A DNA stretch of 36,010 nt, taken from Thermoleophilia bacterium (GTDB lineage: Bacteria > Actinomycetota > Thermoleophilia > BMS3ABIN01). Where the stretch lies: contig JAUSDE010000197.1 of the NCBI GenBank assembly GCA_030650885.1, positions 1 to 36,010 on the forward strand, written 5' to 3'. Below the pieces are notes generated by a model. It saw only the letters and a program-made list of their open reading frames with translations, searched no databases and was not told the origin of the DNA. Shown here one piece after another: positions 1,929 to 24,300 of the stretch (the stretch's first letter is position 1; each line of letters begins with the position of its first letter). A program made the translations under genes and the position numbers.

Positions 1929-4900
1929 CTATATGTAATCCACCCAGGTGCCGTAGAGCGCCCACCAGGTAATGAATCCATGCTCGAAGCGGCTGCGCGC
2001 GCCGCCACCCGGAAGTGCCAGCGGATATTCATCGGTGATCGGCAGGCCCAGTCGTCCCTGAGGTCCGCCGACTGACAAGTAGGTCACGTAGACGCCGCCA
2101 TTGACTATGTGAGAACCGGTGGTGCCTGACCAGTAGACCCTTCCATTCTCGAAGACAGCCGCAACTGCATCAGCATGGGCGGGCAATGCCGGCGACAACG
2201 GTGCCTCTTCACTTATGATCAGATGCAGGTATCCCGCGGGGCCGCCCGTCATCTGGTATTTGACCATGACGCCGCCGCGTACGAAATGTTCGTGATCACG
2301 GGGGTTCCATGTGAAGATCGCCTTTTGGAAGTTCTGTCCGAAGCCATCCCATGCTGAGAATGAGTCGCTGGTCGGTATACCCAGGTAGGCAGATCCGCTA
2401 TTGGCATCGAACATATTCAGGAAGTCCATCCTCGTTATGGCATAAGTGCCCACACCCGGGCCCCAGAAGATCCTGCCGCCGGTGAAACGGCTCTCGCGAG
2501 CGCCGGCGACTCCGGCGACATCCTGCTCGTCCGTGGTTGCCAGGCCCAGGGAACCCAGGGGACCTCCGGGTACTCCGCCTGTGGTCCTGTACTTGGCGAG
2601 GATACCGCCGACTACCGCGTATGCGGGGTTGGCGCCGTTACCATCCCAGGTGATTATCGCTTTTTGCAGGTTCTGCGCTTTGCCGCCGCTGGCATTAAAT
2701 TCGTCACCGGTCGGAATGCCATATGTAGCTGACCCTCCGCCGGAGGTGAACTTCGTACCGATAGCTCCAGAGACTCCGTAAGCGCCCACACCCGGGCCCC
2801 AATAGATCCTGCCGCCGGTGAAAGAGCTCTCCACGGCGCCGGAGACGCCAGGGGCTGGTCCCTCATCGCTTGTGGGAAAGCCGAACGCGCCAGTAGTTCC
2901 ACCAAGCGCTTCATACTTGGTCTGGATGGCGCCATGCACCCACCACACCGTTGTAGGACTGGCCGGACCCATTGCCGAGTTCCAGATCAGTCTGCCGTTA
3001 CTGAAGTCCTGGTATTTGCCGCCGGTTATCACATGCGCTACATCTACGGCGGTGCCAGGCAACCCACCCAGACTATCCCACTTTGCAATGAAGTCAGGAT
3101 CAGTAGCAACCGGTGCGAACTTCAGAATCGCGCCATTACCGCCTGCGGCATAAAATGCGTAATTAGGACCGTTCTGTCCGAATGCCACATTGTACAAAGG
3201 CACATCGGTTCCGGACGATTCGATCGACCATGTACCAGCCAGCCCGTTGTATTTACCTATCCTGCCTTCATCGGCTACCAGGTAACCGGTGGTCGTGTTC
3301 AGCATGGTGACCCCGGCGATAAGCTTGCTCGTCGGTGACGTCTGTTCGGTCCATGTCAAACCGCCGTCTGTCGTCTTGTAGACCCTTCCCGTCGTGACCG
3401 TACTGCCACCCGAGCTGTAAGAGTTATAACCCACAGCCCAGCCATAAGTTGCGTCGACCATATCGATCGAGGTGAAGAAGTTGACGTTGGTCTTGATAGT
3501 GGCGGGACTGTTCCAGTTGCCCCCGCTGTACTTCAGGATTATTCCCTTGGACCCCTGCCCTGTTGCGCATCCAGTGGGGCATGGAGCCGAACCGACAGCC
3601 CAGCCGTTAGTACTTGCGGTCGTATCGACTGAGTTCAGGCTGTAAGTCGCACTGGGAACCGACTTGGTCCATGTAGTGCCATCAGCTGTCTGCATGATGA
3701 CGCCTTCTTCACCGACAGCAAAGCCGTTGGTGTCATCACTCATCTTCACGGAGCTCAGATAGCTCGCCCCGCCAGGGGTCACAAGATCCATCTCCGACCA
3801 GGTGCCGCTATTGTACTTATACGCCTTCGCTACATTGGGTGAACCTAGTATGACGCCCACAGCGAACCCGAGTGAAGCATTCCTGAAATTGACTCCATGA
3901 AGAGCGACGTTGGAAGCAATTCCGGCATTGTCGCTTGACCAGGAACCGCCACCATTCGTTGTGTGGTTCACGGTCCCATTTTCTCCGACGGTCCAGCCAT
4001 TGAGGTCGGTCACAAAACTGGAGCTGAAATTCGAGAGAGCGTCGCCGCCGTTCTTTGGGCTCCAGGTGCTGCCCGAATCAGTCGAAGCCAGCACCAGTCC
4101 GGCCGCACCGCCGACATAGCCGGTCGCGCTTCCCGGTGCAAAGCTCGCGCTGATCATCATATTCGAAGTACCTGATGTCATGGCTGCAAGACCCGACGCC
4201 ACGGTATCGATCGGATCCGCCCAGATATTGACTGCGTTCTTCCTGATATTGCCGCCGGAGCCTGTGGTAACGAGATTAGTTCCACCCGGTAACGCTACGC
4301 TGGTAAGCACTGTTGAAATCGGCCCTGACGCTGTATTAGGAGTCCAGGTTTCGCCGCCATCCGTTGTCCTCAAAATCCTTCCTGAGGCGTCCCCTCCGAC
4401 TGCATAGCCATTGCTCGAGCCTGAGAAAGCCACGGCGCTCAGATTCGCAGTTGTATTGGAGGTCTTGGCTGTCCAGTTAACCCCACCGTTGATCGTCTTG
4501 TAAACAACACCTGAGCTACCGACCGCGACTGCGGTTGTAGTGTTCAACATCTGCACTGAAGACAGGTTGCTGGTGCCGGTGCCGTTGCCCTTAGCCCATG
4601 TAGCGCCGCCGTTGGACGTATAGAATGTAAATCCGTCGCCGACTGTCACGCCGTTGTTTGCATCAAAGAAATGAACGGCCCGAAACGTCGGTGGCGAGGT
4701 GTCATAGGGGGGTGAAAAAGCCGGCGTGATATTGATGTGCTGGTCGGTCCAGGTAGTGCCACCATCGCTCGTCTTCCAGATCGAAGCGTAATCACCAACA
4801 GCCCAGCCCACACTGGCGCTTATAAAGGAGACTCCACGCAGGGCGCAACCGCTGCCGATGTTTGTACCATGGCACGTATAGGCCGGTGTAGCAAAAGCCG

Positions 4901-5153
4901 ATGGTGTCTGGACCGTCCAGTTTGTGCCACCGTTTGTCGTCTTCATGACCGACCCGCCGCCGCCAACGGCCCATCCGTTCGAGGCATCAATAAACGACAT
5001 CGCATTTATGTTATTGCCCTGGACTGTGGGGCGTACCCATTCCCAGATTCCGTTACCGGTACTGACACCAGCCATCGCCATGGGCGCAAAAACCAGGAGG
5101 CCCAACAACGACAGCGCAAGCAAAATCTTTAGAGTCAAAAATCTCTTCTTCAT
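1929..5153 (-). CDS. Secreted BNR/Asp-box (Ycf48-like) beta-propeller protein with C-terminal LGFP repeat array
   Basis: 1074-aa ORF with signal peptide MKKRFLTLKILLALSLLGLLVFAPMAMA. About nine Asp-box motifs are present (TTNGGTNWT, TSDGGTTWT, TSNGGATWA, TINGGVNWT, TTDGGETWT, STDSGSTWS, TTNGGGSWS, TADGTTWT, TTDGGLTWT). The last ~390 aa (nt ~1932-3101) hold ~7 LGFP-type repeats. SD AAGGGG lies 5 nt upstream of the ATG. Confidence 0.85.
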   Translation of the reverse strand: MKKRFLTLKILLALSLLGLLVFAPMAMAGVSTGNGIWEWVRPTVQGNNINAMSFIDASNGWAVGGGGSVMKTTNGGTNWTVQTPSAFATPAYTCHGTNIGSGCALRGVSFISASVGWAVGDYASIWKTSDGGTTWTDQHINITPAFSPPYDTSPPTFRAVHFFDANNGVTVGDGFTFYTSNGGATWAKGNGTGTSNLSSVQMLNTTTAVAVGSSGVVYKTINGGVNWTAKTSNTTANLSAVAFSGSSNGYAVGGDASGRILRTTDGGETWTPNTASGPISTVLTSVALPGGTNLVTTGSGGNIRKNAVNIWADPIDTVASGLAAMTSGTSNMMISASFAPGSATGYVGGAAGLVLASTDSGSTWSPKNGGDALSNFSSSFVTDLNGWTVGENGTVNHTTNGGGSWSSDNAGIASNVALHGVNFRNASLGFAVGVILGSPNVAKAYKYNSGTWSEMDLVTPGGASYLSSVKMSDDTNGFAVGEEGVIMQTADGTTWTKSVPSATYSLNSVDTTASTNGWAVGSAPCPTGCATGQGSKGIILKYSGGNWNSPATIKTNVNFFTSIDMVDATYGWAVGYNSYSSGGSTVTTGRVYKTTDGGLTWTEQTSPTSKLIAGVTMLNTTTGYLVADEGRIGKYNGLAGTWSIESSGTDVPLYNVAFGQNGPNYAFYAAGGNGAILKFAPVATDPDFIAKWDSLGGLPGTAVDVAHVITGGKYQDFSNGRLIWNSAMGPASPTTVWWVHGAIQTKYEALGGTTGAFGFPTSDEGPAPGVSGAVESSFTGGRIYWGPGVGAYGVSGAIGTKFTSGGGSATYGIPTGDEFNASGGKAQNLQKAIITWDGNGANPAYAVVGGILAKYRTTGGVPGGPLGSLGLATTDEQDVAGVAGARESRFTGGRIFWGPGVGTYAITRMDFLNMFDANSGSAYLGIPTSDSFSAWDGFGQNFQKAIFTWNPRDHEHFVRGGVMVKYQMTGGPAGYLHLIISEEAPLSPALPAHADAVAAVFENGRVYWSGTTGSHIVNGGVYVTYLSVGGPQGRLGLPITDEYPLALPGGGARSRFEHGFITWWALYGTWVDYI

Positions 5154-5465
5154 GAATACCCCTTAGTGGAAATATATTGAGTCTCTGAATCAGGACAACC
5201 CGGGGGGAATAAATGTATCTCTAGTAATTGCTTCGGAGATTCGCCCGCATAATCAACTCGAAACCCGCTCTGATCACTGTATTATTCACCCGTTATAACG
5301 CATCTTTCCTGTGTAATAAAGGTACCTTCTTGCAAGAGCTAAATCAAGTTATACACAGTTTAAGCAATGTTGCGAAATATTACCTGATGCACCCTTTTTG
5401 AGTGATATTCATGCCATTTACACGCGAAGAAAATCTGAAAACGAAGAAACCGGCGCGGGTGATCC

Positions 5466-5912
5466 CTACATTACATCGATCCAGGTGCCATATAACGCGC
5501 CCCAGGTGACGAATCCATGCTGGAACTGGCTGCGCCTGCCGCCGCCCGGCAGGGCTATGGAGTATTCATCCGTTAACGGCAGTCCAAGGCGGGAGTTAGG
5601 GCCGCAGTTATTGGTCCCGGCATCGCAATAACCCATATATCTGATGTAGATGCCGCCGTTGACCGTATGTCCGCCTGTAACTGAAGACCAGTAAACATTC
5701 CCGTTCTGGAAAGTGTTCATTCTGGCTCCGGTGATACCGGGGACGACGCCGGGGACGTCCTTCTCTTCACCCGTAGCAAGGTGCAGGGCGCCCGTAGGAC
5801 CGCCGAGCAGCTGGTATTTGCCCATGATGCCTCCATAGACTGCGAAGGCTCCCAGGGCGTCGTTCCAGGTAATGATCGCATTTTGCATATTCTGGGCTTT
5901 GCCGTCCCAGGC
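5466..5912 (-). repeat. Conserved 3' LGFP tail module, copy 1 (last 148 codons of the CAP gene)
   Basis: Encodes AWDGKAQNMQNAIITW...GARMNTFQNGNVYWS...YCDAGTNNCGPNSRLGLPLTDEYSIALPGGGRRSQFQHGFVTWGALYGTWIDVM, closely matching copies 2 and 3. Confidence 0.8.
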
Positions 5913-7169
5913 TGCATATTCATCGCTGATCGGCAGGCCATAAGGCCCCGCAGGTCCGCCCTCGGCCATGTACTTTGTCATGACCGGACCTGCCGTGACA
6001 CCAAAAGCACCTACGCCCGGGCCCCAATAAACCGTACCGCCGGTGAATTCACTCTTCCTGGCGCCGGTCACACCGGGAACGTCGCCCTCACCAGCGGTCG
6101 TAAAACCTAACGGACCGGCCGGGCCACCCAGTATCTTGTATTTACCCATGATGCCGCCGACGACGGCATATACAGGATTCGATGTACCGTCCCAGGTCAA
6201 CGCCGCACGCTGGAAATACTGCGCCCTGCCACCCGCGGCGGCAAACTCGTCACCGACAGGCAGCCCATATGCTCCGGCGGGTCCGCCCTGTGCCAGGTAG
6301 CTATCTACGATAGCCGTCCCTGGAATAACGCTGAAAGCGCCAATGCCAGGTCCCCAGTAGACTGTGCCATTTGTGAATTCGGTCTTCCTGGCGCCCGCGA
6401 CTCCATTGACATCGCCTTCATCGCTTACAGGAAGGCCGAGCGGACTGTTCCAACTGCCGAGCTGGTCGAATTTGGTCAGGATGGCGCCTCGAACCCAGTA
6501 GACTTCATTCCTCGATTGGTTCCATACCAGCCTCCCGCTGACAAAGTCCTGATACGTGCCACCTGTCATTACCTGGGCATAATTTGTAGCGGGACCGGGA
6601 GCCCCACCAAGCGCATTCCATTTTCCCGCCACAGATGCGTCAATAGGATAGACCGGTGCTTCAGAAACACCGCCGAAGTCCGTCGTCCAGTACCAGCCAT
6701 AAGTAGAGCCAGGAACGTAGTACCTGCCGATGCCGATCGCCCGAAAGTTGGCACTGAGCATGTTGGCGTTGTGACCAGGTGAGGCGCGCCAGGCGACAAA
6801 GACATCAAATGCAGTGCCATAGCCTGCTGCGATATTTTCTCCCAGATATGTGTTGTATGTATAACCGGCATAGCGAATCCGATCCCAGGGAGTGACCCCC
6901 TGTGGATCATTGTGAGCGAAATAATTCCTCGCGCCCATATCGTAGCTATGCCCCTCGGAAGCGACATACAATGAATTGGAAAGAGTCAGTGGCCCCAGGC
7001 CATAAGCCGCGCGGTGATTGTTGATATAAGTCAGGAAAGCAAGCTCTTCGTTGTCATAAGCAGAGGCTGCCGGAACGACCGCGAGACTTACGAACAGGAC
7101 TATCATAAATACGGCGAACGCCGAGATCACAAACCGCGAAGAAATTATTTTCCCACCCGTGGCTACCAT
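5466..7169 (-). CDS. Secreted CAP/SCP (PR-1/YkwD-like) domain protein with LGFP repeat array
   Basis: 567-aa ORF with an N-terminal membrane/signal segment. The CAP-like block is NNHRAAYGLGPLTLSNSLYVASEGHSYDMGARNYFAHNDPQG...GENIAAGYGTAFDVFVAWRASPGHNANMLSANFRAIGIG (nt ~6672-7049). LGFP repeats run from aa ~176 to the C-terminus. SD GGGAG lies 6 nt upstream of the ATG. Confidence 0.85.
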   Translation of the reverse strand: MVATGGKIISSRFVISAFAVFMIVLFVSLAVVPAASAYDNEELAFLTYINNHRAAYGLGPLTLSNSLYVASEGHSYDMGARNYFAHNDPQGVTPWDRIRYAGYTYNTYLGENIAAGYGTAFDVFVAWRASPGHNANMLSANFRAIGIGRYYVPGSTYGWYWTTDFGGVSEAPVYPIDASVAGKWNALGGAPGPATNYAQVMTGGTYQDFVSGRLVWNQSRNEVYWVRGAILTKFDQLGSWNSPLGLPVSDEGDVNGVAGARKTEFTNGTVYWGPGIGAFSVIPGTAIVDSYLAQGGPAGAYGLPVGDEFAAAGGRAQYFQRAALTWDGTSNPVYAVVGGIMGKYKILGGPAGPLGFTTAGEGDVPGVTGARKSEFTGGTVYWGPGVGAFGVTAGPVMTKYMAEGGPAGPYGLPISDEYAAWDGKAQNMQNAIITWNDALGAFAVYGGIMGKYQLLGGPTGALHLATGEEKDVPGVVPGITGARMNTFQNGNVYWSSVTGGHTVNGGIYIRYMGYCDAGTNNCGPNSRLGLPLTDEYSIALPGGGRRSQFQHGFVTWGALYGTWIDVM

Positions 7170-7371
7170 GATTTTCTCCCTGACCTGAAAAGATTACTCA
7201 TGAGATAAGAATTCGTCGAAAAACATCAGCCTTAATCATGACTATCTACTTATTGAGTCGGCAGTGACGCCAGTCCGCTTTATTGAAGAGGGTTCGAAGC
7301 GAACATCTCAAAAGGGAAAGAGCCATCTACTCTTCAGCGAACATATTCGTTAAAGGTTACTCGACCGGCGC

Positions 7372-7818
7372 TTATCTGACATCGACCCAAGTGCCGTACC
7401 AGGCGCCCCAGGTGACGAAACCGTGCTGAAGCTGGCTGCGCCTGCCACCACCGGGCAGTGGAATCGAGTATTCGTCGGTTATGGGCAGGCCCAGGCGGGA
7501 GTTAGGGCCGCAGTTTGAGGTTCCGGCGTCGCAATAGGATTTGTACCTGACATAGATGCCACCGTTGATGGTGTGTCCGCCGGTAATTATCGACCAGTAG
7601 ACATCGCCGTTCTGGAACATATTCATCCTGGCGCCGGTCACACCCGGGACCACCCCGGGGACATCGATCTCATCGCTGGTCGCCAGATGCAACGGTCCCG
7701 TGGGGCCGCCCAACATCTGGTACTTGCCCATGATGCCGCCGTAGACCGCGTGAGCTCCCAGGCTGCTGTTCCAGGTTATGATCGCCTTCTGCATGTTCTG
7801 CGCTTTACCGTCCCAGGC
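7372..7818 (-). repeat. Conserved 3' LGFP tail module, copy 2 (GH26 gene)
   Basis: Encodes AWDGKAQNMQKAIITW...GARMNMFQNGDVYWS...YCDAGTSNCGPNSRLGLPITDEYSIPLPGGGRRSQLQHGFVTWGAWYGTWVDVR. The DNA aligns by eye with 9441-9887, with mostly scattered third-position differences. Confidence 0.8.
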
Positions 7819-9084
7819 GTTATAGGCATCGCTGACAGGCAGTCCATAATATGCCGGTCCGCCGGTCCCGCCACCCGATGGAGCCGCCAGGTACTTGGCA
7901 AGGATCTCGCCATTTACCCAGTAAACCGCGTTCGTCGACTGGTTCCAGAAGAGGCTGCCGTTACTGAAATCCTGGTACTTGCCGCCGGTTATTGTCTGCG
8001 CCACATCGAGAGCGGTACCGGGCGCGCCACCAAGGGCATTCCATTTCTCGGCAAAGGGAGCCTCGACTAAAACCGGTGGCTGTGTGTTGCCGTCATCAAT
8101 AATCGCGGCACGGAACGACTGCAGGCCGGCAGCGGAACTCTGGACTCTCCAGTCGGTTTCTTTATTGATATTGAACCAGGTCAGGCTGATGATGCGAGGG
8201 AATCTTGATGGCAGGGAAGCAAATGCGTCGGTGATCCAGCCGGCTTTCCCGCCATTGCCGGTATTGCCGCCCACCTCAGTCGTCGCTGTCTCGCAGATAA
8301 CAACGGATTTATCAGTGTTCGCGACGGCCACGTCATAACTGTAGCGAATGACCTCTTCAAAACTTTGCCAGGAAGATGTCCAATCCGGAGTATTGTAAAG
8401 AGTGCCCCAGTTGTATCCGTTTATTCCAATGAAATCCACGTAAGCATCGCCGGGATAGTAGGTATTAAAAGTTGCCTGGGCCGCGCTGGTGGAGCCATCG
8501 CGATTCGGCGACCAGACCCATTTGACGTTAGTCGCGCCTTCCTGGACAAAGATGTCGTGGACATGCCGCCAGGCAGGTATATAGTCCTGCGGTGAATTCC
8601 CGTTTGCGCTGCCACCCCATGTGACCCAGTCACCATTCATCTCGCTCATCGGGCGGAAATAGACCGGGTAGCCAAAATCCCTCAGCTGCCTGGCCCATCG
8701 CCTGATGTCGTTGTCGAAATCGCCGGCGGTTATTCTTGCAAGTCGATACTCGGGCTGATCGGTGGCGGGACGGCTGAAATCATGGGGCTCCCAGGCCAGC
8801 TGGATGATGCGGCCTTCCTGGGCCATCGGGAGAAAGGTGTCAGCGTAAAAATCCTCACTTATCGACTCATACCACAAAAAGACATCCGTCTGCCGGCCGA
8901 TGGAGCTTTCGAAATCGTGGAGATCTTCGACGGAAGGAAGCTGCTCGTCAGGGAATTGAGGATCGGGGAAGAAGACGCCGAGTTGCAGGGGGTTTGGTGC
9001 TGCATCCGCACTCGCGACAGCGGCCGTGGTAAAAAAGATACAGAACAGAACCGCCGCTAATATCGTAGCTATGACGCGAAACAT
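7372..9084 (-). CDS. Secreted GH26-type glycoside hydrolase (beta-mannanase-like) with LGFP repeats; start moved to the internal Met
   Basis: The ORF track gives 7372..9291 (639 aa). Its first 69 aa have no signal peptide and overlap a structured riboswitch-like leader. Met70 (ATG 9084..9082) begins MFRVIATILAAVLFCIFFTTAAVASADA (signal peptide) and follows a GAGGAGG SD. GH26-like motifs are YFRPMSEMNGDWVTWGG, YYPGDAYVDFIGINGYNWG and VVICETATTE (nt ~8107-8994). LGFP repeats run from EKWNALGGAPGTA to the end (nt ~7375-8064). Confidence 0.8.
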   Translation of the reverse strand: MFRVIATILAAVLFCIFFTTAAVASADAAPNPLQLGVFFPDPQFPDEQLPSVEDLHDFESSIGRQTDVFLWYESISEDFYADTFLPMAQEGRIIQLAWEPHDFSRPATDQPEYRLARITAGDFDNDIRRWARQLRDFGYPVYFRPMSEMNGDWVTWGGSANGNSPQDYIPAWRHVHDIFVQEGATNVKWVWSPNRDGSTSAAQATFNTYYPGDAYVDFIGINGYNWGTLYNTPDWTSSWQSFEEVIRYSYDVAVANTDKSVVICETATTEVGGNTGNGGKAGWITDAFASLPSRFPRIISLTWFNINKETDWRVQSSAAGLQSFRAAIIDDGNTQPPVLVEAPFAEKWNALGGAPGTALDVAQTITGGKYQDFSNGSLFWNQSTNAVYWVNGEILAKYLAAPSGGGTGGPAYYGLPVSDAYNAWDGKAQNMQKAIITWNSSLGAHAVYGGIMGKYQMLGGPTGPLHLATSDEIDVPGVVPGVTGARMNMFQNGDVYWSIITGGHTINGGIYVRYKSYCDAGTSNCGPNSRLGLPITDEYSIPLPGGGRRSQLQHGFVTWGAWYGTWVDVR

Positions 9085-9101
9085 GGGGAGCCAGGCCTCC
9101 T

Positions 9102-9185
9102 CGGCGGCAGCCAGGCTGTCATAGTCCGAAGACCTTAGACCCTTGGCTTTGCGCCACCCCGTTTCCGAGGTTTTGCCTTTATCAC
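9102..9185 (-). promoter_or_regulatory. Candidate c-di-GMP-I (GEMM-I) riboswitch in the 5' leader of the GH26-LGFP gene
   Basis: Minus-strand RNA: GUGAUAAAGGCAAAACCUCGGAAACGGGGUGGCGCAAAGCCAAGGGUCUAAGGUCUUCGGACUAUGACAGCCUGGCUGCCGCCG. In order it shows GGCAAAACC; a CCUCG/CGGGG hairpin with a GAAA tetraloop; GCGCAAAGCC; a second hairpin with tetraloop-receptor-like UCUAAG...UAUGA and a UUCG loop; and an AGCCUGGCUGCC 3' block. The GAGGAGG SD follows directly. Confidence 0.7.
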
Positions 9186-9440
9186 CCGGAACTGGCTTCT
9201 CCCCCACCAACCACGCGCCACGGTGTAGCCACTTATGTGACCAATACTTGTATCGGTCTTTACATAAACCCGCTTTATTGCCGTTGGACAAAGGGAGTAT
9301 GGTTTGCCGCCTCGGAAAGTGGACTGATTCAAGGTCAGGGTCGTTCTAATTATTGTGAAAAGTATCATGTATAGAATATCGATGCATCCAGCGGGGAGGA
9401 AATGTTAATCGAAAGCCCTTCAGAATAACCGGGGGAATTG

Positions 9441-9887
9441 CTACATGACGGTTACCCAGGCGCCGTACCATAGCCCCCAGGTGACAAAGCCGTGCTGAAG
9501 CTGGCTGCGCCTGCCACCACCGGGCAGGGCAATCGAGTATTCATCGGTTATTGGCAGGCCCAGGCGGGAGTTGGGGCCGCACTTTGAGGTTCCTGCATCG
9601 CAATAGGCCTTGTAGATCACGTAGATGCCGCCGTTGATCGTGTGTCCGCCTGTGACCGTGGACCAGTAGACATCGCCGTTCTGGAACATGTTCATCCTGG
9701 CGCCGGTGACACCGGGGACTACGCCGGGGACGTCGATCTCATCGCTGGTTGCGAGGTGCAGGGCTCCTTTTGGACCACCCAACATCTGGTATTTGCCCAT
9801 TATCCCACCATAAACCGCGTGAGCTCCCAGGGTGCTATTCCAGGTTATGATAGCTTTTTGAAGGTTCTGTGCCTTGCCGTCCCAGGC
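9441..9887 (-). repeat. Conserved 3' LGFP tail module, copy 3 (M4 protease gene)
   Basis: Encodes AWDGKAQNLQKAIITW...GARMNMFQNGDVYWS...YCDAGTSKCGPNSRLGLPITDEYSIALPGGGRRSQLQHGFVTWGLWYGAWVTVM. Confidence 0.8.
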
Positions 9888-12308
9888 ATCATAAACGTCG
9901 CTGACAGGAATTCCGTAGTATGCCGGCCCGCCGGTTGCTCCGCCCGCCGGAGGCTCCAGGTATTTGGCGAGGATATAGGCATCCGAGATCGCGTAGGTGC
10001 CGATACCCGGACCCCAGTAGATCCTGCCGCTGGCGAAATCGCTCTCCCTGGCGCCGGTTACGCCAGTGACGTCTATCTCGTCACTCACGGGAAGGCCGAG
10101 CGCACCAGATTCACGGCCCTGCTGGTCATATTTTGTCAGGATAGCGCCATGAACCCAGTAGACCGTATCGGTCGACTGGTTCCAGATGAGCCTGCCGTTG
10201 CTGAAATTCTGGTATTGCCCGCCGGTGATCGTCTGCGCCGCACTAGTGGCTGTGCCCGGAGCTCCACCCAGTGCGTTCCATTTTTCCAGGAATGGAGTTT
10301 CGACGGGTAGTGGAGTGTCATCCTGTGTTGGGACGAAAGAATACACTGTGACGAGGTCATTCACGGCTACCGGAGTATCTGTAGCCGTGAAGGTCACTCC
10401 GTTATCCGTGATTGAAAAAGTCCTGATGGAACCGGTATCCTGGCCGGCGGCGTCATAGACTTTAAGGAACCATCGATTCTGCCAGCTGGGAGACAGATAG
10501 GCGCTACCGCCGGAGATGTCGACCGTCGAATAGATATTATCCGCGGAACCGCCCTGCCGATTCGAGACCACAGTCGACCAGCTTGGCGAATCCGGATTGC
10601 CGACTCCAAGGGTCACTATCAGATCGCCCCTGTAGGTGTGGTCGATCTCGATTCTCGCATTCTGGGTGGATGACTGGCCTGAGCCGATTCCGACAGCTGC
10701 AAAACCGTTTTGCACTGCGATTACTTCCGGGCTGCCCGAACCATAAAGGTCGGCAGCCGACTGCACGCTCGCGTCTCGAGCATCGACAAACTGAGATCCG
10801 GAGTTCAGGTATAAAGTCAACGTCCGGTACCAAATGAACTCCATCTTGTCCTTGCCGATCGCTGTGGCAATGTTATAAGCCGCCTTGTTCGGTATGCCGC
10901 TGTTTGTATGGACGCCACCGTTGTCGCTTGAAGTATTCACATAGCTGTTCATGTGGTCGGGTTGCCCATACTGCGCAGGATTGGACACGCTACGAAGCGC
11001 GTCCCCCGGGGTATTCGGCGTGTATACGTCCTCACCCAGCAGCCAGTCGTCACGGTCCACCATCACACCGAATACATCTGAGTAGGATTCGTTTAGCGCG
11101 CCAGACTGGTATGAGTAGACGAGGTCGGCGGTATATTGCGTGACCCCGTGGGTGAGCTCGTGGGCGACAACATCCAGGCTGTTGCCGAGCGGGCCGAAAA
11201 CATTTCCATCGCCGTCTCCGTAGACCATCTGCTGGCCGTTCCAGTAGGCGTTGTTATAGCTGCTGCCATAGTGGACAGTCGAGATCAGGGAAGCTCCGGC
11301 GTTATTGAAACTGTCGCGCCCGAATGTGCTGGAGTAGTAGTCATAGGTTGAGCCGATATTATTGTGTGCCGCCTGGGCGACGCTGTCCCCGGAGGAACCA
11401 CCCTCGCTGATGAGCAGAGTGCCGGGCGTGGTGGTGCCACTGCCGGCCGTGTAGGTACGGCGATTCTTTACATCTTCGAGGGCGTCATATCGATCTACGA
11501 TGCTGCCATCTTTGGCCCCGACAAAATAAACCATCCGCACGGGCGGGTTATCATTGGCAAGGGTGATCTGCCACGCCAAAACCGGCCGGTTGGGATCAGG
11601 GGAATAGATCACCAGCTGAGGTGGTTCGAACGTCGAAGCTGCTGCAGGGAACCCAAAGTCATGCAGTGCTGCATCGATAGCCTGATCCAGTGTCACCGCG
11701 GGATCCACCGACAGATCGATACCAGGCACGTAGCGCCCGTTCACGGTCTGAATCTTGTTGCCAGGGCTGAAGTGCACTGACATCTCTGTCCCAAAAACCG
11801 GAAGACCTTTGTAAACCTGGGCCATGTGCAGATGTACCATGCCCATTTCATCCACGACCTGGCGCTGCTCCGACAGCTCGGCGCCCGGATCTGTCATGCG
11901 GTATAAATCCTTGTTCTCATCGAAAAACGCAACTGCCTCGACTGTCGGGCTCCCAGTCACTGGCGGTGTTATCGATCCCGTTATAAATGCCGGTATGCCT
12001 GTTTCGGCATCCCAGCGGATGGAGGTTGATTCGCTTTCTACGAGCGTTGATCCTGAGTCTGTCTTTTGTGGGATGTCGGCTGCGCCATCTACACCCGGCG
12101 AGCCTGTTTCCGGAATACTGAAGTTGACTTCTGAGGCGACTTGCGGTGAGACTTCGGCTACTGCATCAACTGAAATGGCGGGATTATCGGCTGGAACGGC
12201 TGGAACGGCCGCGAACTGCTCTGTCAGTAAAAACAAAGAAACAACGGCAGTCAAAACTACTGCCAGGATGGCCGCTAACTTGCATAGCCACTTACCTGAA
12301 GGCCCCAT
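9441..12308 (-). CDS. Secreted M4 (thermolysin-like) zinc metalloprotease with propeptide, P-domain and LGFP repeats
   Basis: 955-aa ORF with an N-terminal signal anchor. The propeptide-like region includes VHLHMAQVYKGLPVFG. The M4 active site is VVAHELTHGVTQYTADLVYSYQSGALNESYSDVFG (HELTH at nt 11148-11162). The proprotein-convertase-type P-domain block is IEIDHTYRGDLIVTLGVGNPDSPSW...WFLKVYDAAGQDTGSIRTFSI (nt ~10401-10658). LGFP repeats cover aa ~672-955. SD GGGAG precedes the ATG. Confidence 0.88.
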   Translation of the reverse strand: MGPSGKWLCKLAAILAVVLTAVVSLFLLTEQFAAVPAVPADNPAISVDAVAEVSPQVASEVNFSIPETGSPGVDGAADIPQKTDSGSTLVESESTSIRWDAETGIPAFITGSITPPVTGSPTVEAVAFFDENKDLYRMTDPGAELSEQRQVVDEMGMVHLHMAQVYKGLPVFGTEMSVHFSPGNKIQTVNGRYVPGIDLSVDPAVTLDQAIDAALHDFGFPAAASTFEPPQLVIYSPDPNRPVLAWQITLANDNPPVRMVYFVGAKDGSIVDRYDALEDVKNRRTYTAGSGTTTPGTLLISEGGSSGDSVAQAAHNNIGSTYDYYSSTFGRDSFNNAGASLISTVHYGSSYNNAYWNGQQMVYGDGDGNVFGPLGNSLDVVAHELTHGVTQYTADLVYSYQSGALNESYSDVFGVMVDRDDWLLGEDVYTPNTPGDALRSVSNPAQYGQPDHMNSYVNTSSDNGGVHTNSGIPNKAAYNIATAIGKDKMEFIWYRTLTLYLNSGSQFVDARDASVQSAADLYGSGSPEVIAVQNGFAAVGIGSGQSSTQNARIEIDHTYRGDLIVTLGVGNPDSPSWSTVVSNRQGGSADNIYSTVDISGGSAYLSPSWQNRWFLKVYDAAGQDTGSIRTFSITDNGVTFTATDTPVAVNDLVTVYSFVPTQDDTPLPVETPFLEKWNALGGAPGTATSAAQTITGGQYQNFSNGRLIWNQSTDTVYWVHGAILTKYDQQGRESGALGLPVSDEIDVTGVTGARESDFASGRIYWGPGIGTYAISDAYILAKYLEPPAGGATGGPAYYGIPVSDVYDAWDGKAQNLQKAIITWNSTLGAHAVYGGIMGKYQMLGGPKGALHLATSDEIDVPGVVPGVTGARMNMFQNGDVYWSTVTGGHTINGGIYVIYKAYCDAGTSKCGPNSRLGLPITDEYSIALPGGGRRSQLQHGFVTWGLWYGAWVTVM

Positions 12309-12521
12309 TTTCCACTCCCAGTACCGGCGTTTTCATCCCCGACAGGGTCTGGCGCCTCCCCAAAAAAGTCTACTGGGATTACAGCCTTGAACTTGGCCTA
12401 TGCCCGAACCCTCAATAACTGATTCGGCCCGGGAGCGACTATATATAAGCCGGAGGGGGTGCTAACGCGGTTCAGGAGGGGGTCTACCCCTGTCCGAGAA
12501 CGGGCGTTCAGGGACTTTTAC

Positions 12522-15500
12522 TCAGGATGCGCGGGCGATCGCTATGCGGACGTTCCTGGTCGTATTTACCGTCTGCACGGTGGTTCCCGTGTAATAATAA
12601 CCGAGGATAGTGGTATAACTATCGCCGCGGCTGGCGCGATCCAGCGCACCATGACCGCTGAGGCCGACCCCATGGCCGTTCATGGCCATTCCGGCGCAGT
12701 CTGGGTCGGCAACGCTTTGCAGCCAGGGCCAGGTGCTGATGCCCCAGACCTCTTGTGCCGAACGGGTCCTGCCATCGGAGTTGGAGAAGTATGAGGTCAT
12801 GGCCACAGAACCGCCATACGTCACGACCTGCCCGGCGGTAGAGGTCACCGCTGTCGCCAGGTCGGGGAACCTTGCTTCCAACCCATAACCCTTGTACTGC
12901 TGGTCGTCGCCGTTACCATTACGGCTGTTTTTCAGGTGGAAGATCTCGCTGGCACCGTATTTTCCATTACGGTCCAGGTGCCAGACAGCGTAACTGCGGG
13001 CAGCCACGGTCATCGTCTTGAGAAAATCTGTGGGCACGCCGGAACTGGTCTCAGCGATTCCCCTCATGTAAAGCTCGAGGGGCAGCTCGTTAACTACCCA
13101 AACCGCATCTGACGCCGGCGAGTAACGCACCTCGATCGTTCCGCGGAAGAGGTTATCGTCCAGACCAGGATTCCAGCTGGGGATGTCATGATAAGAAGAA
13201 ACCTTCATGACGCCCCCATTGGCCGTAAACCTGATGTAAGAAGAGCCATTGAGAGAAACGCCGGGAGCCTGCAGGCTGTAGTTACCGCTGCTGTACCTGA
13301 CTGAAGCAACCTGGCCGGGAGCAATCGTTGCCAGCAGAGCCCCACCTGCATCTCGAGCCTCGTATGTCGAATCAGCAGTCACGGTGGTGGCAGTACCGGC
13401 AAATACCTGAGTGCCGGTAGTGGCGCTCCAGTAAATGTAGCCACCCTGGAAATCGCTGCGCCGGCCGGACCCGTAATCATATTCATCGGTGAGCGGCAGG
13501 CCTAATGCTGAGGTGGGACCACCATACTCGATGTACTTCACATAGATCCCACCATTGACCGTGTGGCCACCTGTAGTCGAAGACCAGTAGATGCGGCCGC
13601 GCTGGAAACCATGCTCCCTGGCTCCGGATACACCGGAGACATCAGTCTCACCGGAAACCGGCAAGCCAAGGGCGCCGGCGGGTCCGCCAAGCTGCAGATA
13701 TTTCCCGAGTATGCCGCCGTAGACTTCGTATGTGCCGGTGGTTGCGTGATAGTAGATGCGCCCTTGCTGGAAGTCGCTTTCCCTGCCGCCAGTGACGCCC
13801 GAAATATCGTACTCATCGGTCAAGGGCAGGCCCAGGAGCCCCGCGGGACCACCAAGTGCTAGATATTTAGTGAAGATAGCGCCCATCACAGCATGGCCGC
13901 CAGTGACCGGGGCCCAATAGATGCGCCCGCGCTGGAAGGCGCTCTCCCTGGCTCCGGATACTCCGCTTACGTCTCCCTCATCGCTGGTCGCGAGCCCGAG
14001 CGACCCGGCCGGGCCTCCGAACTGCGCATATTTGACCTGGATGCCTCCTATTACCGAATGAGCGCCGAGAGAAGCCTCCCAGGTGATCGTCCCTCGCTGC
14101 AGGTTCTGGGCCCTTCCATTAGCGGCGGCGTACTCATCGCTCGTCGGCATGCCATATGATCCCGCGGGGCCACCAAGCGCCAGATATTTCGTCAATATCG
14201 CACCGTAAACACCGTATACACCAACACCCGGCGCCCAGTAGATCCTGCCGTTTGTGAATTCGCTCTGGCGGCCTCCGGAAAGACCTGAAATATCGCTCTC
14301 GTCGCTGACGGGAAGGCCTAGTGGCGAGGCAGGTCCGCCCAGCGCAAGGTATTTCCCGAGAATCCCACCAATCACAGTTCGGGAACTGCCACTAGCGGAC
14401 CAATAGATCCGAGCCCGCTGAAAGTCGCCGGCTCTTGTACCGGCATAACCCGGCACGTCGTATTCGTCGGTCGTAGGGAAGCCATCACGGGCGACACCGC
14501 CATCACTTAGCAGCTTTGCGAGGATCGCCCCCGTCACGGCATGTGTGCCGACGCCGGGACACCAGTAAATCCTGCCGCCCGCAAAGTCGTTGCCGCGCCC
14601 CTCTGCCACGCCGTATTCATCACTTCTGGGCAAGCCCATGGATCCAGACGCACCGCCAAGCTGATTGTATTTTTCAAGGATGCCACCGTGGATCCAGTAA
14701 ACTCCGCCGGCGGGGTTCCATATGATGATGCCATTCTGGAAATCCTGGGCCTGCGCCTCAAGCGGGCACTGGCCACCGGGATTCGACAGGCAGTACTCAG
14801 CGCCTGTTGCCGGACCGGGCGCTCCGTTGAGGCTGTCCCACTTGACGCGGATGCCTGCGACTATCGGAATCGGTGAATAATTGATGTATGCCGCCGTCCT
14901 GAAATATGGCAGATAGGCGTAGAGAGAGTCTCCGGGGCAAGCAGTGTAATTTCCGGCAAGATCACGATGTCCCAGAATATTTGATGAGTAACCGCCGACC
15001 GGATAGCAGTTATCAGGACAACCTTCGTAATGAACGAAATAACTATTTCCGTATGGGTCGATCTGGTTCTGGTTGGCCTTTATCGTCATCAGTTCTGCGA
15101 CAGCGTTATAGATGGCGGTATTTATATCGTGCGCCTCGTAGTTGCCCATCACGGAGATTCCGACCGAACCGGTATTCCAACCCAAAGCATGAGCGCCGAC
15201 GACACCGTTGCCGCCCATCCGCCCCTCGTAGACCCGTCCGAGTTCGTCAACGAGGAAGTTGTAGCCGATATCTCCCCATCCGAGGCTGACAGCATGGTAT
15301 TGCCAGATGCCGAGCACTGTGGCAAACGGATTCGGATCATAGTTGGAGCCCGCCGTGTGATGAAGGATGATCTTCTTCGGCTGGGCATATTCGGAGGGCC
15401 AGTTCGCCTGTGTATAGGCGTCGTTGGCTCCCCACTGGGTTCTGGGGATGTAATTGAGGTCTGCGCTGGCCGAGGCCGGAGCGAGCGCGTCTCTGACGTT

Positions 15501-16115
15501 TTGACTAATATTCGACAGGGACAGCTGTGAGTTGTGATAGCCCCTGGAGTCGATGTAGCTGGCCGTCATCTTTGTGACTACCGGCACCTGGCCGGTTGGG
15601 CTGCTGGTCAGGTCGATGCGATACTGAAAAAATCGGCCGGCGTCCGTGAAAATCAGATCGCCTATCGTCTCGCCCGCGGATTTGGTGCTGGCAAAGTGGT
15701 TGGGTAATTCGTCGACTACTTCGCTGACCGGCTGCCAGTCACCCCACTGGCTGCCGTCCTGGCTGAAGCGGACTTCCACGGCTACGTCGGCTCCGGACGG
15801 CTGATCGGCTTTCCAGTGAAGCCCGAGGGCGTTGAAAGTGTAATCGGCCGCGATGGGTTCGGAGAGATAGCTGCCTTGAGGCTGTGCTGGCTGCAGAGAA
15901 AGCGCCAGCTCCCGGCTTCCAGCCACGGGAACGACGCCGGTGCCACTCGATTCGCCTGATTCAAAGTCGGTGCCGGTCTGGACAAAGTCACCGCTGATTG
16001 CTTCCGGGTGAGATGTCTGGCTGCCGAATCCGGGAAAAACAAAGAATGCGGCAATCAGAAGCAGAACCACGACTGCTGTTCCTGTGAAGTACTTATACCT
16101 GCCACGCATGATCAT
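12522..16115 (-). CDS. Membrane-anchored/secreted N-acetylmuramoyl-L-alanine amidase (Amidase_2/PGRP-type) + 9 LGFP repeats + SpoIID/LytB-type domain
   Basis: 1197-aa ORF with an N-terminal hydrophobic segment. The Amidase_2 block is KKIILHHTAGSNYDP...WGDIGYNFLVDELGRVYEGR...LGHRDLAGNYTACPGD (nt ~14928-15452). Nine repeats of the type I(L/F)xKYLxLGGPxGxLGLPxSDExDxSGVxGxRExxFxxGRIYW cover nt ~13401-14858. The C-terminal SpoIID-like block is LELYMRGIAETSSGVPTDFLKTMTVAARSYAVWH...VVTYGGSVAMTSYFSNSDGRTRSAQEVWG...GHGVGLSGHGA (nt ~12561-13163). Confidence 0.88.
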   Translation of the reverse strand: MIMRGRYKYFTGTAVVVLLLIAAFFVFPGFGSQTSHPEAISGDFVQTGTDFESGESSGTGVVPVAGSRELALSLQPAQPQGSYLSEPIAADYTFNALGLHWKADQPSGADVAVEVRFSQDGSQWGDWQPVSEVVDELPNHFASTKSAGETIGDLIFTDAGRFFQYRIDLTSSPTGQVPVVTKMTASYIDSRGYHNSQLSLSNISQNVRDALAPASASADLNYIPRTQWGANDAYTQANWPSEYAQPKKIILHHTAGSNYDPNPFATVLGIWQYHAVSLGWGDIGYNFLVDELGRVYEGRMGGNGVVGAHALGWNTGSVGISVMGNYEAHDINTAIYNAVAELMTIKANQNQIDPYGNSYFVHYEGCPDNCYPVGGYSSNILGHRDLAGNYTACPGDSLYAYLPYFRTAAYINYSPIPIVAGIRVKWDSLNGAPGPATGAEYCLSNPGGQCPLEAQAQDFQNGIIIWNPAGGVYWIHGGILEKYNQLGGASGSMGLPRSDEYGVAEGRGNDFAGGRIYWCPGVGTHAVTGAILAKLLSDGGVARDGFPTTDEYDVPGYAGTRAGDFQRARIYWSASGSSRTVIGGILGKYLALGGPASPLGLPVSDESDISGLSGGRQSEFTNGRIYWAPGVGVYGVYGAILTKYLALGGPAGSYGMPTSDEYAAANGRAQNLQRGTITWEASLGAHSVIGGIQVKYAQFGGPAGSLGLATSDEGDVSGVSGARESAFQRGRIYWAPVTGGHAVMGAIFTKYLALGGPAGLLGLPLTDEYDISGVTGGRESDFQQGRIYYHATTGTYEVYGGILGKYLQLGGPAGALGLPVSGETDVSGVSGAREHGFQRGRIYWSSTTGGHTVNGGIYVKYIEYGGPTSALGLPLTDEYDYGSGRRSDFQGGYIYWSATTGTQVFAGTATTVTADSTYEARDAGGALLATIAPGQVASVRYSSGNYSLQAPGVSLNGSSYIRFTANGGVMKVSSYHDIPSWNPGLDDNLFRGTIEVRYSPASDAVWVVNELPLELYMRGIAETSSGVPTDFLKTMTVAARSYAVWHLDRNGKYGASEIFHLKNSRNGNGDDQQYKGYGLEARFPDLATAVTSTAGQVVTYGGSVAMTSYFSNSDGRTRSAQEVWGISTWPWLQSVADPDCAGMAMNGHGVGLSGHGALDRASRGDSYTTILGYYYTGTTVQTVNTTRNVRIAIARAS

Positions 16116-16300
16116 CCATACCCCGCTTGAAGCTTATACCCTGCCATACCTTAACAAATATTTGCAGGGAGTTCGGCGCCGTGAATATTAATCTACCAGC
16201 GCAGCGTGCTGCCCCGGAAACGCCGGGCTATTACCTGAAAGTTATGCCCGCCGCCCGCATATCCTTCAAATTGGCTGCCCAACCCTATAGGATTCGAAAC

Positions 16301-17416
16301 ATGAGAATCGGTATCGAAGGCCTGCCCCTCCTGTTCCACCGCACTGGAACCTCGACCTACACCCATGAGCTGGTACAGAGCCTGAGACGGCTGAACCGGG
16401 GTGACCAGGTGATCCTTTTCGCGCGGGACCAGCGGATGGCGGGGGATTCCTACCACAACATCTCTTTCGCGGAGAGGGCGGCAAACTATATCTATAAAGA
16501 GTATCGGCTGCCACAGGAGCTGGCCGAACGGGGCATCGATATCTATCATGCCCCGCGTGACATGGGCTTGCCCAAGACATCGCGCCTGCCGTGTGCCAGC
16601 ATCATCACCCTGCATGACATCATTCTGATCAGGCTGGCGTCGGACTACTACAGTGCGGCAAGGGCGCGGATGTATGAACGCCGCCTGCGCGACAGGGTTG
16701 GAGGTGCCGACCATGTCATCACGATTTCCGAGTTCTCCCGCAAGGACATCCTCGACTGGTGTGACATCGACCCTGGCAAGATCAGCGTCGTACACGACGC
16801 CGTCAACGAAACTTTTCGCCCGGTTACCGACGAGGCGAAGCTGGCTGCTGTCGGCAGCCGCTATCAGCTGCCACCTCGTTTTGCCCTGTGCGTGGGTTCG
16901 ACGGAACCGCGCAAGAATATCCGCAACTCGATCAAGGCATTCACGCAGCTCAGGCGCGTCCGCGCCGACGTGCAGCTGGTTGTAACCGGTGTGGAGTACT
17001 GCCGGGTCGGTCCCGATCAGGCTTTTGCGGGCCTGGACCTGGAAGGCGTCCATTTCGCTGGATATGTACACGACCAGGACATGCCGGCCATATACAGCAT
17101 GGCCGAAGTGCTGGTTTTTCCTTCCCTGTACGAAGGGTTCGGATTGCCGCCACTCGAATCGATGGCCTGTGGCACGCCGGTGGTCACCTCAAACTCCACA
17201 TCCATCCCCGAAATCGTCGGGGATGCGGCGGTGCTGGTCGACCCTGAAAGCCCGGCCGAGATCGCAGGAGCTCTGGAAATGGTGCTATCCTCCGGCGACG
17301 TTCGCGCCGGACTGATCGAAAAGGGTACTGCCCGCGTCGCGACTTTCAGCTGGCGGCAGTGTGCTGAAGAGACACGAGATCTTTATCAGCGGGTATTATC
17401 AGCCCGTGGCCACTAA
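16301..17416 (+). CDS. Glycosyltransferase family 4 (GT-B, Glycos_transf_1)
   Basis: The ORF track gives 16127..17416. The typical GT4 N-terminus MRIGIEGLPLLFHRTGTSTY starts at ATG 16301, and the upstream 58 aa look non-coding. C-terminal signature: LVFPSLYEGFGLPPLESMACGTPVVTSN (E-x7-E). Confidence 0.85.
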   Translation: MRIGIEGLPLLFHRTGTSTYTHELVQSLRRLNRGDQVILFARDQRMAGDSYHNISFAERAANYIYKEYRLPQELAERGIDIYHAPRDMGLPKTSRLPCASIITLHDIILIRLASDYYSAARARMYERRLRDRVGGADHVITISEFSRKDILDWCDIDPGKISVVHDAVNETFRPVTDEAKLAAVGSRYQLPPRFALCVGSTEPRKNIRNSIKAFTQLRRVRADVQLVVTGVEYCRVGPDQAFAGLDLEGVHFAGYVHDQDMPAIYSMAEVLVFPSLYEGFGLPPLESMACGTPVVTSNSTSIPEIVGDAAVLVDPESPAEIAGALEMVLSSGDVRAGLIEKGTARVATFSWRQCAEETRDLYQRVLSARGH

Positions 17417-19142
17417 CACTGAAATAGCCCAGATTCTTGAGACGCTGGCCGAGCTGATGGAGCTCGACGGTGTTAACAAGTTCAGATTCATAGCCCTTCA
17501 AAAGGCTGCGCGGCGCGTCTCTGAGGCTGGCTTCTCCATAACCGAACGGGCTGCCGCTGGAACCCTGACGGATATCCCCGACATCGGTGAGAAGATCGCC
17601 GCCAAGATCGAGGAGATCGTCGCAACTGGCAGGCTCGGGGAACTCGAGGAATATTTCCAGAAGTATCCCCCGGCCCTGATAGAGATGGAGCGGGTGCAGG
17701 GCGTCGGGCCGAGGACCGCCCGCCGCGTCTGGGAGGACCTGGGCGTGTCCAACATCGCCGAACTGGAGGCGGCCGCCCGTGACGGAAGCATTGCCGGTCT
17801 GCCTGGCCTGGGAGAGAAAAGCGCGGAAAACATCCTCAAGGCTATCGAACGGCTCAAGGTGCGAAGCGACCGGCTGCTGCTGGGCGAAGTTCTCCCCGTG
17901 GCCGAAGAGATCGCCGAGCGGCTCAGACGGGTTCCCGGAGCTCGTAATGTAACCTGCGCCGGCAGCGTCAGGCGTATGAAAGAGACGGTCAAAGATGTGG
18001 ACATCATCGCAACCGCAACGGACCCTGAAGCGTTGACGGGGGCTGTCGGCCGCCTGCCGATGGTCGCGGATATAATCACCAGCGGCCCTACTAAATGCTC
18101 AGTGCGCACCCATGCGGGCCTTCAGGTTGACCTGCGGGTGGTTCCAGACAGTCTTTACGGCAATCTCCTTCAACATTTCACAGGATCTAAAGAGCATAAT
18201 ATAGCCCTGAGGGAACTGGCTATATCGATGGGGCTCAAGGTCAGCGAGTACGGGGTTGAGGAGACCGCCAGCGGCAAGGTCAACGAATGTGCCACCGAAG
18301 CAGAAGTCTACAGCCTGCTCGGACTGGCTTACATCCCCCCGGAGCTACGCGAGGACAGCGGTGAACTGAAAGCCGCCGCGGAAGGCCGGCTGCCGCATCT
18401 TATCGAGACCGGAGACCTTAAGGGGGACCTGCACCTGCATACTGACTGGAGTGACGGACGCGCGTCGATCAAAGAGATGGCTCTCGCGGCACTGGATCGC
18501 GGTTATTCCTATATCGGTGTATCCGATCACACTCAGTCGATGGGCATGGTAAGAGGCCTGACTCCCAAGAGGCTTGAAGAGCAGCTCGCTGAAATCGCAC
18601 AGGTGAACGATGAGCTGGAGGGATTCCGCGTCTTCGCCAGCGCCGAAGTCGATGTAAGGTCAGACGGTTCACTTGACCTGCCGGATGAATCCCTGTCATC
18701 GCTTGATTTCGTCACTGTCTCGATCCATTCCGGCTTCAATCAGGAGAAATCACAGATAATGGAGCGGCTGCGCGCGGCCATGGAGAATCCGTTTGTCAGG
18801 GCCATCGGGCATCCAACAGGAAGATTGATCAACCGGCGTGAGCCTTACGAAGTGGACATGGAAGAGATTATCGCGACGGCGGCGCGAACGGGCACGGCGC
18901 TGGAGATCAACTCCCACTTTCAGCGGCTCGACCTTAACGACATCCATGCGCGGGCGGCAAAGAACGCCAGCGTACCACTCGTAATCAACAGCGACGCCCA
19001 CCGTCCGGAACATCTGGATGTGCTCAGATATGGCATTGCCACCGCCCGGCGCGGCTGGATCGAGCCGGCCGATGTCCTGAACACCTTGAGCACATCTGCC
19101 ATGGAAAAGGTCCTGCTCAAACCCAAGACCGGGATCCTCTAG
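17361..19142 (+). CDS. polX: DNA polymerase X family protein with C-terminal PHP domain (PolX)
   Basis: HhH motifs (GVGPRTARRVWEDLG, LPGLGEKSAENI), nucleotidyltransferase motif GSVRRMKETVKDVDIIA and PHP motif GDLHLHTDWSDGRASI...SDH. The in-frame GTG at 17406 (VATNTEIAQILETLAELMEL...) is an equally plausible start. Either start overlaps the GT4 stop. Confidence 0.85.
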   Translation: MLKRHEIFISGYYQPVATNTEIAQILETLAELMELDGVNKFRFIALQKAARRVSEAGFSITERAAAGTLTDIPDIGEKIAAKIEEIVATGRLGELEEYFQKYPPALIEMERVQGVGPRTARRVWEDLGVSNIAELEAAARDGSIAGLPGLGEKSAENILKAIERLKVRSDRLLLGEVLPVAEEIAERLRRVPGARNVTCAGSVRRMKETVKDVDIIATATDPEALTGAVGRLPMVADIITSGPTKCSVRTHAGLQVDLRVVPDSLYGNLLQHFTGSKEHNIALRELAISMGLKVSEYGVEETASGKVNECATEAEVYSLLGLAYIPPELREDSGELKAAAEGRLPHLIETGDLKGDLHLHTDWSDGRASIKEMALAALDRGYSYIGVSDHTQSMGMVRGLTPKRLEEQLAEIAQVNDELEGFRVFASAEVDVRSDGSLDLPDESLSSLDFVTVSIHSGFNQEKSQIMERLRAAMENPFVRAIGHPTGRLINRREPYEVDMEEIIATAARTGTALEINSHFQRLDLNDIHARAAKNASVPLVINSDAHRPEHLDVLRYGIATARRGWIEPADVLNTLSTSAMEKVLLKPKTGIL

Positions 19143-24182: not shown

Positions 24183-24300
24183 ATTTAAAATCAGTCAATC
24201 ATGTTTGATTCAGTCAAGCAGTCACGATTGCAGCGGAATCCCCCAGCCGCGCAACGGTCGGCAGCTTGAGATATCTGCGATAGTATCCGAAAGCCCGGTC

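Follow-up and report, generated by a model that had tools for sequence, protein, structure and literature searches.

The founding GEMM survey names proteobacteria, Firmicutes and Planctomycetes, and extracellular carbohydrate-active enzymes and peptidases are classic targets of these RNAs (PMC1950547). Vc2, the class-I aptamer of the Vibrio cholerae tfoY leader (PDB 3IRW), is reported to mask a distant ribosome-binding site by means of a helix that lies outside the aptamer, and so to repress translation (Inuzuka 2018, as far as it is summarised in PMC11705072). P1a is needed for ligand binding by Vc2, in which G20 and C92 have roles in ligand contact (PMC11705072); A47 is among the ligand-binding nucleotides of 3IRW (PMC7288161), and P1 is described as an unstable, ligand-dependent helix, with P2 and P3 preformed (PMC9262584; PMC11705072). 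In C. difficile, Cd1 (before flgB) and the ppep-1/zmpI switch are c-di-GMP-I OFF switches (PMC11477304; PMC9262584). Cd1 works by transcription termination (PMC9262584), and the class-I riboswitch of ppep-1/zmpI controls the secreted protease PPEP-1/ZmpI, an enzyme that remodels the cell surface (PMC11477304). The GEMM-Ib riboswitches of Geobacter (pilM, Gm0970) respond to cGAMP and share the fold and the clan of the c-di-GMP-I RNAs. According to what is said of the 2015 work of Kellenberger and of Nelson, they carry A at the position equivalent to G20 and are transcriptional ON switches.

Little has been said of GEMM-I in the actinobacterial group. We analyzed a window of 36,010 nucleotides (the whole stretch of DNA presented here), in which a first-pass annotation had called a GEMM-I aptamer in the minus-strand leader of a GH26-LGFP gene. 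The quoted RNA is present at that place, and cmscan of the whole window against Rfam matched RF01051 (c-di-GMP-I) at 9187..9103 on the minus strand, over model positions 1-87 of 87, with 80.8 bits against a gathering score of 35 and an E value of 1.4e-14. This was the sole Rfam match in the 36 kb, and gathering and permissive thresholds gave the same outcome. Given this score and E value over the full-length model, the resemblance is far beyond chance, and as judged from its sequence the leader element is a genuine class-I cyclic-di-GMP (GEMM-I) aptamer. Its parts are as follows.

9103..9187, minus strand: c-di-GMP-I aptamer (RF01051; compensatory changes in P2 and P3)
9186-9183 with 9106-9103, minus strand: P1, GGUG with CGCC (sequence, Rfam alignment)
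9171-9156, minus strand: P2, with the GAAA tetraloop at 9165-9162 (sequence)
9150-9148, minus strand: AAA linker (sequence)
9148-9109, minus strand: P3, with the receptor UCUAAG/UAUGA (sequence)
9177, 9150 and 9107, minus strand: G, A and C equivalent to G20, A47 and C92 (Rfam alignment, Vc2 numbering, spacing from P1)

The aptamer lies in cis before the GH26 gene, as had been proposed: its 3′ end is 1 nt before the SD GAGGAGG (9102-9096) and 18 nt before the ATG at 9084, which sits 11 nt after AGGAGG.

7372..9084, minus strand: GH26 gene, 570 aa, secreted, with three LGFP repeats (Pfam PF02156 and PF08310; PDB 2bv9; protein collection)

The catalytic domain aligned best with CtLic26A, the GH26 module of C. 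thermocellum endoglucanase H (2bv9, E 3e-50), and its SEMNG and ICETA motifs line up with both catalytic Glu of 2bv9, which we take to be E109 and E222. The LGFP repeats match the LGFP domain of Corynebacterium PS1 (6swz), and the N-terminus of the 570-aa protein is signal-peptide-like (MFRVIATILAAVLFCIFFTTAAVASA); this secreted protein is probably wall-anchored. We know of no riboswitch control of either CtLic26A or PS1. The open reading frame listed for this gene is 639 aa long, starts at a TTG at 9291 and runs through the aptamer. We regard it as an over-extension because in six homologous loci stop codons interrupt this frame within the riboswitch, before the start, the 570-aa product (P0001) is present in the protein collection, and the N-termini of homologues align at M(F/L)RLAA. 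The suspicion of a wrong start was thus borne out; on this evidence the true start is ATG 9084, and the gene is corrected from 639 to 570 aa.

Relatives of the GH26 protein at 52-79% identity come from metagenome-assembled genomes labelled Actinomycetes, Thermoleophilia or Gaiellales. Beyond the window, RF01051 stands directly before GH26 homologues in 13 loci of uncultured Actinomycetota, with 63-85 bits (L001-L005, L008, L068, L082, L101, L103, L106, L107 and L108), which makes 14 with the window included; it is absent before six GH26 homologues (L006, L007, L009, L105, L109 and L110). Twelve of the leaders, including that of the window, form class A, and since they come from closely related uncultured lineages, the leader counts given below are not counts of independent events. 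The other two, L005 and L008, form class B and differ from class A in having a P3 insertion and another platform; in folds of these two leaders the aptamer was not recovered. A metagenome scan for the pattern GGCGCAAAGCC-N35-65-CCGCCNAGGAGG returned 40 matches, of which 3 are true leaders (L068, L082 and L091, the last being identical with L004) and the rest GC-rich coding sequence. A search for contigs that encode the GH26 protein of the window itself gave none.

We note some features of the class-B sites (L005 2821-2933 and L008 2820-2932), which lie before GH26 paralogues. By eye, they have an insertion of ∼28 nt in the P3 loop, a 6-bp extension of P1 (GAUGUU/AACAUC), an SD ∼25 nt downstream and a CUUCCU anti-SD-like box ∼45 nt upstream.

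With respect to Vc2, the aptamer of the window shares the Rfam family, a predicted P1, the GAAA loop of P2, the receptor in P3 and the three ligand-contact positions. The first hairpin (GC/GC plus ACCUCG-GAAA-CGGGGU) fits the 2-bp and 6-bp stems, 3-nt internal loop and GNRA tetraloop that were described, with covariation, for GEMM-I, and the AAA linker, which stands in the context GGCGC-AAA-GCC and is invariant in alignment A3, fits a linker that is "virtually always AAA" (PMC1950547). Across the 12 class-A leaders P2 is 100% paired with both sides changed in 3 of its 6 pairs, and P3 has one pair with compensatory changes. P1 (GGUG/CGCC) is paired in all 12, but its sequence is invariant, so that it gains no support from covariation. 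The GAAA loop and the UCUAAG/UAUGA receptor are both present; the latter had been taken for a special compensatory variant of the canonical receptor, but it is simply the consensus of the RF01051 model (uCUAAg...uAuGa). That the element is a chance resemblance or a decayed, functionless relic is effectively refuted: some homologues do lack the aptamer, as listed above, but the match has an E value of 1.4e-14 with the full-length model, and the aptamer is kept, with compensatory changes, before orthologues that have diverged to 52-79% protein identity.

We also observed that 10 of the 12 class-A aptamers have GGCGC where the family consensus is GACGC (9155-9151 in the window, minus strand). This variant makes GGCG complementary to the P1 3′ strand CGCC, and a GGCG:CGCC pairing, which appears in folds with the TIR (translation initiation region) forced open, may be an alternative of the apo state.

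The G, A and C at the three ligand-contact positions were as first assigned. A47 reportedly emerged from the 2009 work of Smith as a ligand-contacting nucleotide in Vc2. The position equivalent to G20 carries G, not A, in all 12 class-A leaders, that of the window among them, so that these RNAs differ from the Geobacter GEMM-Ib riboswitches and lack the cGAMP signature; on the sequence of this position c-di-GMP is favoured over cGAMP, in agreement with the original annotation. A preference for another cyclic dinucleotide (3′3′-cGAMP), or promiscuity, seems very improbable to us. GEMM-I does have cGAMP-selective members, and the G20-equivalent position is a selectivity factor and not a hard filter (PMC9262584). 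Against this stand, besides the uniform G, the agreement of the A47 and C92 equivalents with the c-di-GMP consensus, RF01051 itself being the best clan member, and the GGDEF-domain genes that adjoin the GH26 gene in L104 and L106.

We then compared the sequences 5′ of the aptamer, where class-A leaders have ∼75 nt in common, consisting of a CGATACAA box, a hairpin (H1), an ACCUCGG box and a strand termed S5, in this order. These elements and the translation initiation region are located in the window as follows.

9243..9255, minus strand: CGATACAAGTATT, a conserved box that adjoins the leader on its 5′ side; candidate -10 region of a promoter
9226..9243, minus strand: 5′ hairpin H1, UGGUCAC-AUAA-GUGGCUA (pairing and covariation)
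9218..9225, minus strand: ACCUCGG-type box, CACCGUGG in the window; conserved, alignment A3 columns 33-40, between H1 and S5
9188..9207, minus strand: S5, the G-rich sequestering strand, with GUGGGG 9207-9202, AGCCAG 9197-9192 and the anti-SD UUCC 9191-9188
9082..9102, minus strand: translation initiation region (TIR), with N 9102, SD AGGAGG 9101-9096, switching strand C(N′)UGGCU 9095-9089, CCCC 9088-9085 and ATG 9084-9082 (sequence)

The pattern of the CGATACAAGTATT box occurs once in the window, and its CGATA is invariant in 12/12 class-A leaders; a promoter scan of the leader region found no canonical sigma-70 promoter. H1 has 6 pairs, with 94% of cells paired across the 12 leaders and 3 pairs changed on both sides, and because its G-U wobbles fit the minus strand only, it is transcribed RNA. 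A reading of H1 as a sigma-54 promoter (TGGCCAC-N-GTGGCC) was rejected by eye, since the spacing varies and the changes are of the RNA type, compensatory or wobble. The highly conserved ACCUCGG-type box has complementarity to the CCGAGG in the SD region, and likewise to the 5′ strand of P1 or to the anti-SD strand; its pairing with either of the latter two is 88% paired and has no covariation. No terminator-like site was found in 8800-9800, including the interval between aptamer and ATG, so that the intrinsic terminator of a transcriptional riboswitch, as in Cd1, has no counterpart after this aptamer. With no terminator and only 18 nt from aptamer to ATG, control of translation initiation is the natural reading.

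In the homologue L109 (2880-3000), which has no aptamer, the CGATACAA box is kept as a similar sequence, CGATACAAATAATG, that agrees at 14/15 pattern positions, and an S5-like sequence, AGCCAAGUUCGAGGGUG, stands directly before the ATG; from its sequence, the locus looks as if aptamer and SD had been deleted.

We sought pairing partners of the TIR and found that S5 can pair with it, by UUCC:GGAG at the SD, AGCCAG:CUGGCU in the spacer and GGGG:CCCC up to the AUG, and that this S5:TIR helix (state A) directly continues the aptamer helix P1 (GGUG:CGCC). In the minimum-free-energy (MFE) fold of the window leader (-73.6 kcal/mol, z -2) the aptamer is enclosed by the S5:TIR helix, as it is in the alifold consensus and in the MFE folds of homologues (all of the first 7 leaders). 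S5:TIR is a conserved helix over SD and start codon that is linked to the aptamer. In the 12-leader alignment the full model is 95.1% paired, with 8 pairs showing double changes, a result that was reached by 0/500 shuffles. S5:TIR including P1 comprises 15 pairs, 91% paired, one of them compensatory, and the CC:GG contact between S5 and SD is found in 11/12 leaders. The covariation rests mainly on one column (the pair col72-177 is AU in 6 leaders, GC in 3, GU in 1 and other in 2), where L003 and L004 have a mismatch; in L108, S5 itself has diverged. RNAduplex energies of S5:TIR range from -15 to -30 kcal/mol. An all-against-all covariation scan of 7 sequences only gave a signal that was too noisy.

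The TIR also has a second, local partner. GCCGAG, which joins the P1 3′ strand to the first bases of the SD, can pair with the spacer C(N′)UGGC in a local hairpin (state B), which breaks P1 since it uses the P1 3′ strand. The register GCC-N/N′-(U)GGC reaches 100% pairing, by four types of pair, and 1/500 shuffles was as good; the most stable registers of the local hairpin have energies of -4.5 to -9.8 kcal/mol. An N-N′ hairpin on its own, which would place the SD in a 7-nt loop, was rejected, since it is 100% paired but reaches only -0.2 to -2.3 kcal/mol. We read the N-N′ pairing as one element of a competition among three strands, in which stability lies with other registers. Taken together, the alignments indicate that both competing pairings are conserved, with limited covariation. 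The ensemble energy of state A minus that of state B lies between -8 and +6 kcal/mol, and since this gap is small and binding needs P1, the ligand energy could decide between the two states. To open the TIR takes 9-18 kcal/mol in general, and with the aptamer held formed it takes 14-22 kcal/mol.

From these data we consider it probable, with a fair measure of doubt, that the GEMM-I riboswitch in the 5′ untranslated region of the GH26-LGFP gene is a translational OFF switch that acts via S5. In this mechanism c-di-GMP binding would need P1 and lock it; the locked P1 would withdraw GCC from the local hairpin and line S5 up with the ribosome site, and SD and AUG would be buried in an interrupted helix of ∼20 bp, turning translation off. 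Without ligand, the weaker local hairpin would leave the AUG free and be easier for the 30S subunit to open, so that translation would be on or leaky. Ligand binding and the OFF direction are both inferred. For many leaders, nearest-neighbour models place S5:TIR in the ground state, or close to it, already without ligand, which means that kinetic (co-transcriptional) control is probably needed. The ON state would not be cleanly open, since the local hairpin also covers part of the SD, and the start codon follows GGAGG at 9-13 nt, a rather long spacing.

The first-pass annotation had proposed a different switch, in which the SD region pairs with the first hairpin of the aptamer. CCUCGG (9170-9165) of the P2 5′ strand is indeed complementary to CCGAGG (9104-9099), but this match is perfect only in the window and has one G-U wobble in the closest relative, L082. 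As a conserved switch helix it failed the comparative test: of its two central pairs, one is broken in 9/12 leaders and the other in 4/12, with no compensatory change, 470/500 shuffles were equally good, and the P2 5′ strand covaries with its own 3′ strand, not with the SD region. The conserved partner of the SD is instead the strand 5′ of the aptamer, which implies the opposite logic, OFF and not ON with ligand. An ON switch, in which the P2 5′ strand or S5 would hold the SD until c-di-GMP frees it, is an unlikely reading, although one with something to be said for it. There are ON switches among the GEMM-I RNAs, and for terminator-type platforms ON logic was put forward by Weinberg 2007 (PMC1950547); S5:TIR, moreover, is predicted without ligand, so that its relief by ligand is conceivable. 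But without the P2:SD helix the ON model has no conserved structural route. In every predicted fold the aptamer can coexist with S5:TIR and is coaxial with it, and because no aptamer element competes with S5 or the TIR, there is no visible structural route from binding to release of the SD.

The S5:TIR duplex, stabilized by ligand, could instead act on mRNA decay or processing (for example as an entry site for RNase III or RNase J) or on Rho-dependent termination. The interrupted helix of ∼20 bp, the conserved H1 at the 5′ terminus and the lack of an intrinsic terminator are compatible with this reading, which we nevertheless hold to be rather improbable: the helix covers exactly SD, spacer and AUG, a classic signature of translational control, and there is no specific sign of a nuclease site or of a rut site.

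The translational OFF switch via S5 that we favour differs from Vc2 in that the SD starts 1 nt after P1 and is masked by a 5′ strand in coaxial continuation of P1; it also has another host, uncultured Actinomycetota, and another target gene, and it is known here from sequence and predicted folds. From Cd1 it differs in its platform, which is sequestration of SD and AUG. Biologically, the switch would repress a matrix or wall glucan hydrolase at high c-di-GMP, in parallel with ppep-1/zmpI, where an OFF switch likewise controls a secreted enzyme. More tentatively, uncultured, deep-branching Actinomycetota might use a distinctive, kinetically controlled three-strand GEMM-I platform, with S5 as the 5′ mimic strand, the SD together with the P1 3′ strand as the second and the spacer as the third, to make a secreted Lic26A-like glucanase an enzyme of dispersal or wall remodelling at low c-di-GMP; if this is true, second-messenger signalling would be tied directly to the turnover of a β-glucan matrix. 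The aptamer itself is an ordinary addition to a well-known RNA family and leaves the knowledge of riboswitch classes unchanged. The novelty lies in the lineage, in GH26-LGFP as the target and in the S5-type platform, a compact and comparatively supported platform for translational control, which would place a secreted, probably wall-anchored polysaccharide hydrolase of an uncultured actinobacterial lineage under c-di-GMP control.

In relatives the GH26 gene adjoins a large Epimerase_2 gene, a GT2/DUF2334 gene and GGDEF genes, a neighbourhood that suggests a setting of exopolysaccharide and c-di-GMP; the window has no such neighbourhood, and within it no GGDEF or EAL gene was found. The Epimerase_2 protein (516-549 aa) is encoded upstream of and divergently from the GH26 gene in L101, L105, L106, L108 and L109, and a HAMP-GGDEF gene and a GGDEF-HD gene lie near GH26 in L104 (4781-5338) and L106 (4190-5947).

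The GH26 gene of the window is one of five consecutive minus-strand genes (1929-16115) for secreted proteins that all end in LGFP repeats. The C-terminal LGFP regions of the five proteins are highly alike, and among the five genes the riboswitch stands before the GH26 gene only. The other four are the following.

12522-16115, minus strand: Amidase_2 and SpoIID, LGFP
9441-12308, minus strand: M4 thermolysin-like peptidase, LGFP
5466-7169, minus strand: CAP/SCP, LGFP
1929-5153, minus strand: BNR/Ycf48-like, LGFP

Further along the window, genes for sigma-54 (RpoN), for a histidine kinase with a PAS domain and for a sigma-54 activator of the NtrC type lie at 24205-28575 on the plus strand. Classical Actinobacteria do not usually have sigma-54; the closest relatives of this sigma-54-bearing genome are labelled Actinomycetes or Thermoleophilia. 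Finally, a PolX-type DNA polymerase with pol beta thumb, HHH and PHP domains is encoded at 17361-19142 on the plus strand, adjoining a GT4 glycosyltransferase gene (16127-17416).
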